NCBI GenBank assembly: GCA_000004695.1
Contig: CM000154.2
Location: forward strand, 3,072,001 to 3,136,000
Reading direction: 5' to 3'
Origin: Dictyostelium discoideum
Taxonomy: Eukaryota
Length of the DNA: 64,000 nt
The notes beneath the pieces were generated by a model. It had not been told where the DNA came from and did no database searches. It saw nothing but the letters and a program-made list of their open reading frames with translations. The translations under genes were made by a program, and so were the position numbers. Below are positions 13,619 to 62,890 of the stretch, in pieces. The first letter of the stretch is position 1, and every line of letters starts with the position of its first letter.

Positions 13619-13820
13619 ATGGACATAAATAATAATATTGACAATATTACAAATAGTAATAATAATATTGAAAAAAATAATAATATTAATAATTTTGATA
13701 ATAATAATAATAATAATAATATTTTATATATTAGTAGTAGTGAGAGCAATAATAATAATAATATTAATAGTAGTAATAGTAGTAGTAATAATACTAACAA
13801 TAGTAATAATAGTAGTATTA

Positions 13821-13868
<48 letters not shown>

Positions 13869-14718
13869 TTTCCATAGAAGGTAATACAGCTAATAATAGT
13901 GATATAAAAGTTGGAACAAGTTTAACGAATTCAATTAAAAGCTTTAAGAAACTATTTAATAATCAAAAGAGTAATAATAATAACAATAATCTTCAAGTTA
14001 ATCATTTTCAACAATCACAATCATTACCACCATCATCAAATACTTCGCCTACATTTTCATCAACATCACCAATTATAATCGTATCGGATAATACAAATAT
14101 TGAATCTTTAGATTTAGAAATAAATAGTAATAATAGTGGTAGTATTGGTAGTAATAATAGTGGTGATAATAATAATATAAATATGAATTATAAATCAAAA
14201 TCCCTATCATTAAATTATTCAATTTTAAGACCTTTATGTGATACTGATAATATTAGTAATAACAATAATAATAATAATAATAATAGTAATAATAGTAATA
14301 ACAACAACAACATGTCATCCTCTGATAATAATAATAATAGTAATAGTAATAATACTACAAATGGTGGTCAACTAAAAAGAAATAATAGTAGTAATAATAA
14401 TAATAGATATAGTATTGGTGGGCCATTAAAAATGTCAAATTCATCAGATTTTAATGATTATTTATTAAATAATAATATTTTATATAATATTAATCAACCT
14501 AATCGTAAAACACCACCACCAAATTTAATGTCAGTTTTAAAGAATAGTTTCACACAATATACACCACCTTCAACAACACTCACATCACCAACAAGTACAC
14601 GTAATCCAAATAGATTATCAACAAATTTATCAAATGTAACAAATATATCCTCTTCAACATCATCATCTTCTTCATCTTTAAATGCTAATAATAATACTAA
14701 TAATAATAATCAACAATT

Positions 14719-14753
<35 letters not shown>

Positions 14754-15076
14754 TACAGCAACAACAACAATTAACAAAATCATACTCTGTTAGTAATTTA
14801 ATGAGATCACAATCATCATCATCATCTTCACAATCACCATTAATTCAACAAAGTGATCAAGTTACATTTGATTATGATTATATTTATAGAAGGTTCCTTA
14901 GAAGTAGAAGTGAATTGACATTACCATCATGGGACAATGCACAATATGAAGGTGATTTCGATACTGAAATCCAAGATACTCTAACTAGAGCTTTATCAAA
15001 TGGTAATTTACCAAGTGATAATAAAAGACAAAGTTTACATTTATCAACTGAATCAACTACAAGTAATAATAATAAC

Positions 15077-15108
<32 letters not shown>

Positions 15109-17627
15109 TAATAATAATAATAAATCAAAAACTGATGATACAACAAATTCTGCTACAACTACAACAACAACCACTACAACTACAACAACAACAACTACAA
15201 CCAATTCAACAACAACAACAACACAATTAAATAATGGTAAAAATTTAATTGGATTAGTTTATAATGATAAAGATGAAGTTATTGCAGGTGAAAGAGATAA
15301 AATTATTGGATTATTTACAGATATTTCAAAAGTGACAGGTACACAATTTTTAGAGGAATTTTTATTTACATATCATTATTATATGACATCAGTTGATTTA
15401 TTAGAGAATTTAAAGGGTAGATTTAATAATCCATTAATGGATCAAGCAGCACAATCAATATCAATACTTGAAGAGAATCATGACAAAGTAAAGATTGAGC
15501 AGCTTTCAACACATATTAGACTTCGTGTTATTAATGTAATAAAGAAATGGATTGAAAATCATGGTTATGCATTCGCAACCGATATTAACCTGTATCAAAT
15601 GTTGGTGGACTTTATAGATGGTGATGTGATGTCGTTCAGTCAAAGATGGGGCCAATATTTGAAAAAGGCAATCAATGATAGTGGCTGTCTATTACGATAT
15701 ATAGCTGTCAATGTAAAAGAAGCATCCTCCAAACAATTGCGTGAAATCATCTCATTGGATAATTTAGATGCAATCTCAAAATTAATGTCACAATCATTAC
15801 AATTGAAAGAACGTAAAAAAGGTTTAAAAGTTATTAAAAATTCATTCACAGGTAATGAAGCTGTAGAATGGTTAATTAATAAATTCAATTTAGATTCAAA
15901 AGATGAAGCACTTGAAACTTTATCAAAAATGTTACAATCAAATTTAATTTTTCATCATTCAAAATCTGGTTCTTCATTTTCTCCATCCTCCTCCTCCTCC
16001 TCAACAACAACAACGACAACAACATCATCATCATCATCGAGTTCGAATACAACAACTGCAAATATGGCATCATCATCTTCTGCAACCGATAATAGCAGCA
16101 GTGGTGGTGTTGTAACTTCTTCATCATCTTCTTCATCATCATCATCTTCTTCACCATCAAATGGAAATGGTACAACAGCTATAACGAGTACAAGTTTACC
16201 AAATTCTATATCATCATCAAATTCAACATCAATTTTAACATCATTAGTTGTAAATAGTAATAGTAGTGGAATTGCTAATGGTTCCTCAACTCCATCAATA
16301 CCATCATCTGTAACATCACCTTTAACAAATTCAAAATCGACTTTAAATTCTACCCCTTCATCATCATCAAATTCTTTTACTTTTAAAGATAAATCAACAA
16401 GTATCTATTATTTTATATTTGAAAATATTAATTTTCCAGAACCAATTGTACCAAAAACATTTTTTTCATCACCAAATTCAACATTTTCAATTACATTTTT
16501 AGATATTCATCCAGTTGAAATCGCTAGACAATTGACATTAATTGATTATGAGTTATTTAAAAAATTATCACCAACTGATTTCTATCATACAGCATGGAGT
16601 AAACCAGATGCAAAAGAGAAAGTACCAAATTTAATCAATTTTATCAATAGATCCAATACCGTTAGTTATTGGGTTGCCACAGAGATTTTATCATCTTCAA
16701 ATATAAAACATCGTGTTTCAGTTTTAAAAAGATTCATCACTATCGCTGAAATCCTTAGAAAATTTCATAATTGGAATACTCTCACTGGTATTTTAATGGG
16801 TTTAAATTTAGGTTCAATTCAACGTTTAAAGAAAACTTGGGAATCTATTGATAAGAAACAATTGGATTCACTTCAAAATTTAATTAATCTAACAAGTGAA
16901 CGTTTAAATTATTCAAATTATCGTAAAGAAATGTCAACTCCAACTTATCCTTGTTTACCTTTTATGGCTGTATATTTAAAAGATTTATATTTTATTGAAG
17001 AAAATCCTGATTATTTAGAAAATGGTTATATTAATTTTGAAAAAGTAAAAAATTATTATTATTATTATTAAATTTATTTAATTTTTATTTAATTTATTTA
17101 ATTTATTAACTTTTTTATTTTATTTTTTTTTTATTTTTTTTTACTTTTTATTTTAGATGAAAATGATTTCTAAAGTTTTAATTGAAATTAAAAGATATCA
17201 AACTGAACAATATTGGTTAAAGAAAATAGATGCAATTGAAAATATATTGAAATCAGTTGTTTTAACTGATAAAGATTTATATAAAGCTTCACATATGATT
17301 GAACAACCTCAAAGAACAATGACTGTTGGTTCAAATTTAAAAGCTCAATCATTTTTAACAACAACAACAACAACTACCACTACAAATAATTTAAATAATA
17401 ATAATAATAATAATAATCCAAATAATAATAATAATAATAATAATAATAGCGCTAATAATAAATCTTCACCATCTCCATCACCCTCCTCCTCTCCAATTAC
17501 TTCATCACCAATATCATCATTAACAATTAACAACAACAATACGATTTCATCAAATTTATCAGCTTCAACTGATAGTAGTATAAATACAAAAAAGAAATCT
17601 TCTTTCTTAATGTTTGGAAAGAAATAA
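13619..17627 (+). CDS. Ras guanine-nucleotide exchange factor with REM (RasGEF_N), DEP and CDC25-type catalytic domains; exons 13619..17044, 17157..17627
   Basis: REM-like: IGLVYNDKDEVIAGERDKIIGLFTD...TQFLEEFLFTYHYYMTSVDLLENL. DEP: LKVIKNSFTGNEAVEWLINKFNLDSKDEALETLSKMLQSNLIFH. RasGEF catalytic: FLDIHPVEIARQLTLIDYELFKKLSPTDF...NLINFINRSNTVSYWVATEIL...LRKFHNWNTLTGILMGLNLGSIQRLKKTW...YRKEMSTPTYPCLPFMAVYLKDLYFIEENPDYLENGYINFEK. Donor GTAAAA at 17045; 112-nt intron; acceptor TTTTAG at 17156. Exon 2 (MKMISKVLIEIKRYQ...) completes the CDC25 domain. Both phases are 0. Confidence 0.8.
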
Positions 17628-17757
17628 TAAAAAAAAAAAAAAATATATACTAAAAGTGTTTATGTATATTAATAATAAAAAAAAAAAAAAAAAAAAGAAA
17701 AGTAATTTTAGTATAGAAAAATAAAGAAACAAATTGTTTCTCTTTTTTTTTTTGCCA

Positions 17758-17796
<39 letters not shown>

Positions 17797-18009
17797 GGCA
17801 CGCCAATAACGTTTTGTCAACCTCTTTTTTTATTTTTTACTTTTTTTTTTTTTTTTCAAATTTTTTTTTTTTTATGGCAAAAAAAAAAGCATAAAAGAAA
17901 AACTCGTTTCTTTTTTTTTTCTTTTTTTTATTGACAAACAAACTAAAATGTAAGCATCAATACTTATTTATAAATTTATATTTTATTTTTTTTATTTTTT
18001 TATTATTAT

Positions 18010-18092
18010 TACTTGGTGATGATTAACAGCTAAAGACTAGAGTTTCTGTAAAAACTATTGCTGAGACTATGCATTATTCTTTCCTGATATTT
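18010..18092 (+). ncRNA. Candidate box C/D snoRNA
   Basis: GGTGATGA (C box, 18015..18022), internal CTGA (18061..18064, D-prime-like) and CTGA (18084..18087, D box) within about 80 nt. The local sequence is non-homopolymeric and less AT-rich than surrounding intergenic DNA, and lies between two protein genes. Confidence 0.25.
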
Positions 18093-18304
18093 AATATTTT
18101 TAAAAAAAAAAAAAGAAATATATATTTGTGTTAAGAAAAAAAAAAAAAACAAATTTTAACTTTTTTTCTTTTTTTTTTTTCCTTTTTAAAGTTTTTAGGT
18201 TACATAAGTTCTTGATTCATCTAAGTTAGCTCCTTGATTTATTTTATTAATGTATGTTTTCAAAAAAGACTCAGGATAATTTTGCTTTTTATGTTTTAAA
18301 GGTT

Positions 18305-18395
18305 GCCAAGATTAAGTGATGATATTAATTACCGTCCGATTCTCGAATAAGACGATAACCTTTGGCTGTTTTTTTAAAACACTGATTTTCTTCAC
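18305..18395 (+). ncRNA. Candidate box C/D snoRNA
   Basis: AGTGATGA (C box, 18315..18322) ... CACTGA (D box, 18382..18385), about 70 nt apart. The flanks can pair weakly (AAGA / TCTT). Sequence between has normal complexity (ccgtccgattctcgaataagacgataacctttggctg), unusual for this intergenic DNA. It is 300 nt downstream of the first candidate on the same strand; snoRNA genes often cluster. Confidence 0.25.
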
Positions 18396-18600
18396 ATATC
18401 TTTAAACATAATTGCAAAAAATAATATTCATGGTGTCTAAATATTTTTTTTATATTTAAACCAATACTAATATTTTTTTTCTTTTACCATAAATTATTAC
18501 AGATTTTAGAATTATTTTCCTTTTTCTTTCCTTTTTCTCTGAGATTACTTTTTTTATCATAAAATGATTTTAAAATGTTTAAATAAAAATGTTAAATTAT

Positions 18601-18722
18601 TAAAAAAAAAATGTGTTTGGTCAATTTGTTTTTTTATATTTTTGTGTTTAAATTTCTTTTTGTTAAAAAAAAAATGTATTTGGTCAATTTGTTTTTTTAT
18701 ATTTTTGTGTTTAAAACCCAAT
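18601..18722. repeat. About 60-bp tandem duplication
   Basis: aaaaaaaaatgtgtttggtcaatttgtttttttatatttttgtgtttaaa (18601..18655) is repeated as aaaaaaaaatgtatttggtcaatttgtttttttatatttttgtgtttaaaa (18669..18722) with one G>A difference. ORF 18611..18793 is an artefact of it. Confidence 0.85.
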
Positions 18723-18971: not shown

Positions 18972-19571
18972 TTAGTTTTGTTGTAAAAGGTTGGTACCAC
19001 AGGTTTCAGCAATGAGTTTTTCGATTTCACTACCATAAGTGACACCTCCTGCTTTTGGTTGAGTTGATTTAACACCAGCTTCGAAACCTTCTTGGTATGC
19101 TTTTGATTTTTCAGCAGTAGCAGTAGTTTTAATTTCTTTTGATAAATCTTCTTTGGCAATTGATTTGAAGGTATTTAATTTACCGACACCATGTGAAATG
19201 CCAAATAAAACGCTAAGACCATATAAAACCTTTAATTATGTTTGATGTGATGGATAATGATCATTATTATTTTTATTATTATTATTATTTAATTTTGTAT
19301 TTTTATTAATTTATTATTAGTACATCTATATATTTGGTTTAAAAATTTGTGGGTTTCTTTATTTTTTTTTTTTTTTTTCTGCTGTGACTGGGTGAAGATC
19401 GTATAAAAAAAAAAGAAAACAAAAAAAAAAATATAAAAAAAAAGAAGAAAATAATGTCATAATAATAAAATTGATTTGTTTTTTTTTTTAAAAAAGTTAT
19501 TGATATGGGTGTGTTAACACATAAGATATAAGATTACTTACACCGACGAATGAGTTTGGAGTGTAAGACAT
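18972..19571 (-). CDS. Small conserved-looking membrane protein (95 aa), 2 exons (minus): 19571..19542, 19229..18972
   Basis: Exon 1 is AAAATG TCT TAC ACT CCA AAC TCA TTC GTC GGT then GTAAGT; 312-nt intron; acceptor TTAAAG. Exon 2 is VLYGLSVLFGISHGVGKLNTFKSIAKEDLSKEIKTTATAEKSKAYQEGFEAGVKSTQPKAGGVTYGSEIEKLIAETCGTNLLQQN*. It has one predicted TM helix with a small-residue (G/S) face. Only the last 68 codons appear in the ORF track (18953..19159). Confidence 0.45.
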
Positions 19572-41135: not shown

Positions 41136-41208
41136 CGCCCAAAGGGGGGCTCGAACCCCCGACCACAAGGTTAAAAGCCTTGCGCTCTACCGACTGAGCT
41201 ATCTGGGC
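41136..41208 (-). tRNA. tRNA-Lys (anticodon UUU), 73 nt
   Basis: Minus-strand sequence GCCCAGA-TA-GCTC-AGTCGGT-AGAGC-G-CAAGG-CTTTTAA-CCTTG-TGGTC-GGGGG-TTCGAGC-CCCCC-TTTGGGC-G. It has a 7-bp acceptor stem (one G-T), D-arm GCTC/GAGC, anticodon loop CT-TTT-AA, T-arm GGGGG/CCCCC with TTCGAGC loop, and internal A-box (TAGCTCAGTCGG) and B-box (GGTTCGAGCCC). Confidence 0.85.

Positions 41209-59179: not shown

Positions 59180-62890
<3,711 letters not shown>

Follow-up and report, generated by a model that had tools for sequence, protein, structure and literature searches.

The two box C/D snoRNA genes and their surroundings

The window, i.e., the whole stretch of 64,000 nucleotides that was analysed, is Dictyostelium discoideum chromosome 5, positions 3,072,001-3,136,000 (offset 3,072,000). 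[quoted passage not shown] Their features are collected in the table below. The upstream neighbour is a + strand gene with RasGEF_N, DEP and RasGEF domains (13619-17627), while downstream a small − strand protein-coding gene ends near 18975 (coding exon ~19225-18975). The RasGEF gene is large, carries long homopolymer tracts of Asn, Gln, Thr and Ser, and is apparently interrupted by a short intron (~17072-17156).

The initial annotation, which was made from the sequence alone, had described two box C/D snoRNA-like elements. Its C boxes at 18015 and 18315 are each the base before the true start and are thus correct within one base, and the CUGA motifs were found on the + strand at precisely the positions it gave (18084 and 18382). 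The gap between box C and box D is 61 nt for the first and 59 nt for the second element. Also the statement that no ORF covers the region holds, i.e., zero ORFs of at least 50 aa overlap 18005-18400. The description as one complex-sequence island has to be modified. The complexity is indeed above that of the surroundings (DNA of 79% A+T), but it is found in two stretches of ~80 nt each rather than in one island (GC 0.33 and 0.31 vs. 0.12-0.19 in the flanks). The spacer between them (18091-18312) has 222 nt, about half of which is made up of A and T runs (~18100-18185); the start-to-start distance of CD22 and CD21 is 301 nt.

Several repeats lie next to the pair. In the same intergenic region, ~180 nt downstream of CD21, we find a tandem duplication (18568-18693) with a unit of ~63 bp (76% identity overall). 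Its core (TTTGGTCAATTTGTTTTTTTATATTTTTGTGTTT) is present in two perfect copies, at 18616 and 18679; a weaker third copy of the unit is located upstream of CD22 at 17812. Furthermore, an imperfect A/T-run palindrome with 55-nt arms (85% complementary) spans 17737-17895. Its arms, in which T11-GCCAC-A36 pairs with T-run-ATGGCA-A10, flank a short complex core (GGCACGCCAATAACGTTTTGTCAACC, ~17797-17822) between the RasGEF stop codon and CD22. A role of the palindrome as promoter or terminator is conceivable, but so is mere low complexity.

The box C/D reading is supported by the literature, where the elements appear as D. discoideum CD22 and CD21 (published 2022; PMC8817022). That is, the pair is a published snoRNA cluster. 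In the respective study (Diesend et al. 2022, Sci Rep 12:1952; PMC8817022), snoScan was used along with RNA-seq, primer extension and RiboMeth-seq; 47 of 577 genome-wide snoScan candidates were accepted, which gives a catalogue of 47 box C/D snoRNAs, 30 of them new. Its Table S5 places CD22 at chr5 3090012-3090090 (+; 79 nt, GC 32.91%) and CD21 at chr5 3090313-3090388 (+; 77 nt, GC 31.17%). The single offset of 3,072,000 puts both entries on the two elements (18012-18090 and 18313-18388/9), and the lengths and GC contents computed from the window for 18012-18090 (79 nt, 32.91%) and 18313-18389 (77 nt, 31.17%) agree with the table to two decimals. Table S4 (PMC8817022) lists GUGAUGA and CUGA for both RNAs at C-D distances of 61 (CD22) and 59 (CD21), which equal the boxes and distances in the window. 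The guide and D' strings of Suppl. Fig. S6 are present verbatim for both elements.

At 18063-18083, the window contains the exact reverse complement of the published CD22 probe. For CD22, we thus observe no difference to the entry in PMC8817022, with locus, strand, length, GC content, boxes, probe, guide and D' being identical. For CD21, locus, strand, GC content, boxes, the C-D distance of 59, guide and D' are identical, and the published probe matches 18360-18381 except for one extra T within the T run 18369-18375 (seven T in the window vs. six in the probe). In addition, the end coordinate of CD21 in Table S5 implies 76 nt, while the stated length and GC content fit 77 nt. Both discrepancies are trivial and probably due to a typographical or strain difference.

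CD1-17 are apparently numbered after the older DdR1-17 set, because the guide of CD2 is the same as the DdR2 consensus in Rfam. CD21 and CD22 would therefore belong to the 30 snoRNAs described in 2022, in agreement with the lack of any above-threshold Rfam 15 family at this locus.

Features of the CD22/CD21 locus in window coordinates (Tables S4 and S5 and Suppl. Fig. S6 are those of PMC8817022)
Feature	Position	Strand	Basis
TATAAA, candidate promoter element, ~40 nt upstream of CD22	17969-17974	+	sequence
snoRNA gene CD22, 79 nt, box C/D, guide for 26S Um2687	18012-18090	+	Table S5, probe, Rfam
CD22 box C GUGAUGA	18016-18022	+	sequence, Table S4
CD22 D' antisense element AAGACUAGAGUUU	18033-18045	+	same as Suppl. 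Fig. S6 guide
CD22 box D' CUGU, degenerate	18046-18049	+	Suppl. Fig. S6, sequence
CD22 loop between D' and C' boxes, 9 nt		+	sequence
CD22 putative box C' UUGCUGA, 5/7 to RUGAUGA	18058-18064	+	assigned here from sequence
CD22 D-box-side antisense region GACUAUGCAUUAUUCUUUC, 19 nt	18065-18083	+	sequence
CD22 box D CUGA	18084-18087	+	sequence
snoRNA gene CD21, 76-77 nt, box C/D, guide for 17S Um571	18313-18389	+	Table S5, probe, Rfam
CD21 box C GUGAUGA	18316-18322	+	sequence, Table S4
CD21 D' antisense element UAAUUACCGU	18326-18335	+	Suppl. Fig. S6
CD21 box D' CCGA	18336-18339	+	Suppl. Fig. S6, sequence
CD21 putative box C' AAGACGA, 5/7 matches	18349-18355	+	assigned here from sequence
CD21 D-box-side region UAACCUUUGGCUGUUUUUUUAAAACA, 26 nt, contains CCUUUGGCUGU (18358-18368)	18356-18381	+	sequence
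CD21 box D CUGA	18382-18385	+	sequence

Guide elements, target sites and counterparts

Box C/D snoRNAs are discrete RNAs of about 60-110 nt, whose 5' and 3' ends can be joined by a terminal stem of 4-5 bp. Their C and D boxes form a kink-turn, which needs the GA dinucleotides and on which Snu13, Nop56/58 and the methyltransferase fibrillarin assemble; the methylated residue is the one opposite the fifth guide position upstream of box D or D'. Both RNAs have terminal C and D boxes with GA dinucleotides, which would thus form the kink-turn and recruit Snu13, Nop56/58 and fibrillarin, i.e., the protein composition of the two snoRNPs is presumed by analogy. Internal D' and C' boxes are present in CD22 and CD21 as well, though degenerate, as is typical of D. 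discoideum (PMC8817022). The C' boxes are not printed in PMC8817022. In the metagenomic counterparts of CD21 (see below), AUGACGA and GGACGA of the C' region line up with the candidate C' box of CD21. The internal CUGA at 18061 was considered as D' box of CD22 and rejected, since it belongs to the C' box UUGCUGA.

The initial annotation had proposed to test for complementarity to rRNA upstream of the D or D' boxes, and such complementarity was found for both RNAs. The working guides lie directly in front of the degenerate D' boxes (CUGU at 18046 and CCGA at 18336) rather than of the canonical D boxes. According to Suppl. Fig. S6, the CD22 guide pairs with 26S 5'-UGACUCUAGUCUG-3' and the CD21 guide with 17S 5'-GCGGUAAUUC-3' (PMC8817022). 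Given these printed fragments, we obtain an 11-bp duplex for CD22 (-16.7 kcal/mol) and a 9-bp duplex for CD21 (-10.0 kcal/mol). Guide duplexes reported for D. discoideum comprise 7-15 bp (PMC8817022), such that the one of CD21 is near the bottom of the range, which counts against the best explanation.

The fifth nucleotide upstream of D' is A18041 in CD22 and A18331 in CD21, which are opposite 26S U2687 and 17S U571, respectively. Both residues are methylated according to RiboMeth-seq (26S Um2687 and, within the 530 loop, 17S Um571; Table 1 of PMC8817022). That is, the printed rRNA fragments together with the published RiboMeth-seq data put a 2'-O-methylated residue opposite the fifth guide position in both cases. 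The site of CD22 equals yeast Um2421 (snR78), human Um3904 (U52) and Arabidopsis Um2411 (snoR37), while the site of CD21 equals yeast Um578 (snR77), human Um627 (HBII-135) and Arabidopsis Um580 (snoR77Y) (PMC8817022). Following this layout, AAGACUAGAGUUU before CUGU would direct the 2'-O-methylation of 26S U2687 and UAAUUACCGU before CCGA that of 17S U571 in the 530 loop. We infer that CD22 and CD21, and no other RNAs, direct these two modifications.

Folded with or without their flanking sequence, both RNAs resemble shuffled sequences in thermodynamic stability (z ~0) and show no convincing terminal stem, which also counts against the best explanation. The initial annotation had named a missing terminal stem as a reason to reject its reading, but this test is inapplicable here: about half of the validated D. 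discoideum snoRNAs, including CD22, are without one. In the published snoScan results, the terminal stem of CD21 scores +0.77 and that of CD22 -1.56 (PMC8817022). With regard to expression, an RNA entered the catalogue only if its RNA-seq reads numbered over 100 and had a distinct 5' end, both RNAs received the full expression score of 15, and primer-extension oligos (both RNAs) as well as a Northern blot (CD21) are reported (PMC8817022).

Searching the whole window with Rfam 15 at gathering thresholds results in one match, a tRNA, and none for CD21 or CD22. This only match is a tRNA-Lys(UUU) gene at 41136-41208 (- strand). Without an Rfam family for the two snoRNAs, the identification is based on sub-threshold matches and literature. 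In a permissive search with 4227 models, the top match of CD22 is snR78 (RF01176; 27.7 bits, E=0.0068) and that of CD21 is snoR77Y (RF01178; 23.5 bits, E=0.072), with scores well below the respective gathering scores of 48 and 52. This counts against the best explanation, and neither RNA is a member of these families by covariance score. The two top matches are exactly the counterparts that PMC8817022 names. CD22 and CD21 are thus functional counterparts of snR78 and snoR77Y via guide and target, outside of Rfam membership.

CD22 shares with yeast snR78, human SNORD52 (U52) and Arabidopsis snoR37 (RF01176, RF00276, clan CL00063) the targeted uridine in the conserved LSU segment GACUCUAG as well as the D'-side location of the guide, and 13 nt of its guide/D' core (ACUAGAGUUUCUG) are identical in the Rfam snR78 consensus. 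It differs from this group in its D' box (CUGU vs. CUGA), and the remaining sequence is unrelated. In the same way, CD21 addresses the 530-loop uridine of yeast snR77, Arabidopsis snoR77Y and human HBII-135/SNORD65 (RF01181, RF01178, clan CL00057) and has AAUUACCGUCNGA in common with them. In contrast to that group, it shows a shorter guide of 9 bp with UUAAUUACCGU in place of UGGAAUUACCGU, which begins 3 nt past box C rather than 10-14 nt, a D' box CCGA, and a D-side element that is 13 nt away from box D.

Counterparts of CD21 were also found in metagenomes. Here, we scanned for the pattern TGATGA-N3-30-AATTACCGTCNGA and obtained 120 loci, mostly chance or bacterial, of which ~15 apparently real snoRNAs are left after filtering. 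These have the full layout with good terminal stems, share box C, AAUUACCGUCNGA and box D with CD21, and can be aligned to it. Compared to them, CD21 has a shorter guide nearer to box C, the D' box CCGA and no clear terminal stem. When metagenomes were searched for both guides in tandem, with the one of CD22 followed after 262-292 nt by the one of CD21, no matches were obtained.

Transcription of the pair

We favor the view that CD22 and CD21 derive from one dicistronic precursor that would be trimmed to size, i.e., a single transcript from upstream of CD22 would span both genes and subsequent trimming would release the mature snoRNAs. Since the 3' ends of the flanking genes converge around the snoRNA pair, it requires its own promoter. 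The candidate TATAAA is found upstream of CD22, and none was found upstream of CD21; as a promoter in DNA of 79% A+T, such a motif is weak evidence. The DUSE motif [AT]CCCA[CT]AA is absent between the flanking genes and occurs 3 times in the whole window vs. 9.5 times expected by chance. A perfect DUSE-like ACCCACAA is located at 19347-19354 (- strand), upstream of the small − strand gene; it is probably a coincidence, because the motif is rarer than expected (3 vs. 9.5). A scan for bacterial-type promoters and terminators gave nothing informative.

CD22 and CD21 could also be independent single-gene units with their own promoters that are merely close together, which we consider rather unlikely. 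Some published clusters may be of this kind, e.g., a primary transcript of CD16-CD23-CD5 was unseen (PMC8817022), and the complex 125-nt stretch upstream of CD21 (18186-18312) could contain a promoter. Furthermore, the spacer 18091-18312 folds no better than shuffled sequences (z = +2.1), i.e., it is without a processing hairpin that would mark an RNase III site. Loss of DrnB (RNase III) leaves snoRNA levels unaffected. Against independent units argues the location on the same strand at a spacing of ~300 nt, which is typical of Dictyostelium snoRNA clusters; that is, the 301 nt of CD22-CD21 are within the start-to-start range of ~260-340 nt of the other published clusters (PMC8817022). In total, seven new clusters are counted there, and primary transcripts have been shown for three older clusters in earlier work cited by PMC8817022. 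Also the restriction of TATAAA to CD22 and the absence of DUSE fit the dicistronic precursor better than separate promoters.

Alternative readings and the D-box-side halves

The box pattern by itself is weak evidence and not decisive. Within the window, we count 11 instances of TGATGA-N50-80-CTGA vs. 2.4 expected from shuffles, and RUGAUGA followed by CUGA 50-100 nt later is found 8 times on both strands of the window vs. 1.5 times in Markov-1 simulations. This excess is observed because coding sequence supplies 6/8 arrangements, which are within open frames of at least 80 codons; only those at 18016 and 18316 are outside. The observation draws its strength from the presence of two copies on one strand, 300 nt from each other and outside coding sequence. 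The other six arrangements are located at 59454 (+) as well as 33056, 34376, 45655, 48426 and 57863 (-). Their TGATGA arises from strings of Asp and Met codons, and none of them is on the published snoRNA list for the interval (PMC8817022).

The eight occurrences of the pattern in the window, the acceptance of only 47/577 snoScan candidates (PMC8817022) and a folding of both elements no better than shuffled would all be compatible with C/D-like motifs that arose by chance in AT-rich intergenic DNA, with a functional RNA being absent. This explanation is already refuted by the published RNA-seq, primer extension and Northern data (PMC8817022), and we assign virtually no probability to it. Not only are both RNAs expressed, but also their methylated targets are exactly at guide position 5 (PMC8817022), and their guide and D' strings are common to yeast snR78, plant snoR77Y and the metagenomic counterparts.

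With regard to the D-box-side halves, CCUUUGGCUGU of CD21 is complementary to ACAGCCAAGGG, a segment of conserved LSU rRNA sequence (11 bp including one G-U). It shares UUGGCUGU with two plant-like metagenomic snoRNAs of snoR77Y type (L020, L100). In these two RNAs, CUUGGCUGUGGUA directly abuts the box D CUGA, while the CD21 counterpart is 13 nt away, separated from box D by the U/A run UUUUUUAAAACA. Given this distance, canonical methylation is not expected. The CUUGGCUGUGGUA element is complementary to the LSU segment CCACAGCCAAGG; that this segment is of rRNA origin follows from the fungal LSU primer LR230, CCACAGCCAAGGGAACGGGCTTGG (PMC12625182). Based on an offset estimated from yeast numbering, the segment would lie between Cm2603 and Gm2661, and PMC8817022 reports no methylated sites in between. 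CD22 is absent from the dual-use Table S7, and Table S5 lists only 26S-Um2687 for it; the D side of CD21 has no assigned target in these tables either (PMC8817022). As judged from these sequence comparisons, CCUUUGGCUGU may well be a relic of an ancestral dual small-/large-subunit guide. The comparison of both D-side regions with the short rRNA fragments printed in PMC8817022 gave no meaningful duplex (-6.6 and -4.6 kcal/mol). UUUGG followed by CUGU in CD21 was considered as a guide for the unassigned site 26S-Am2547 and rejected, with 5 contiguous pairs only (context inferred from the CD14 panel).

It has been raised by the authors of PMC8817022 for such RNAs that their main role might be elsewhere, here in snRNA or tRNA modification or in pre-rRNA chaperoning via the D-side regions, and each of the two RNAs indeed has 19-26 nt on this side without an identified rRNA target in the published data (PMC8817022). 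We consider this highly improbable for CD22 and CD21: the sites matched by their D' guides are deeply conserved and experimentally shown to be methylated, which suffices to explain gene retention, and the D-side region of CD21 is mostly a low-complexity U7A4 run. A further reading is that the D-side halves of both RNAs are not inert, i.e., the one of CD21 would still pair with 26S pre-rRNA without methylating it, or the one of CD22 would guide the modification of a non-rRNA target. We regard this as unlikely; if true, CCUUUGGCUGU of CD21 could tether small- and large-subunit segments or serve as a chaperone.

The targets of CD22 and CD21 are among the most deeply conserved rRNA ribose methylations of eukaryotes, namely within the 530 loop of the small subunit and in the large-subunit segment immediately downstream of the macrolide-site region. 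The reading of the raw sequence was correct in picking two real snoRNA genes out of DNA with a very high A+T content. For both, the guides persist across supergroups while the remainder of the RNA diverges.
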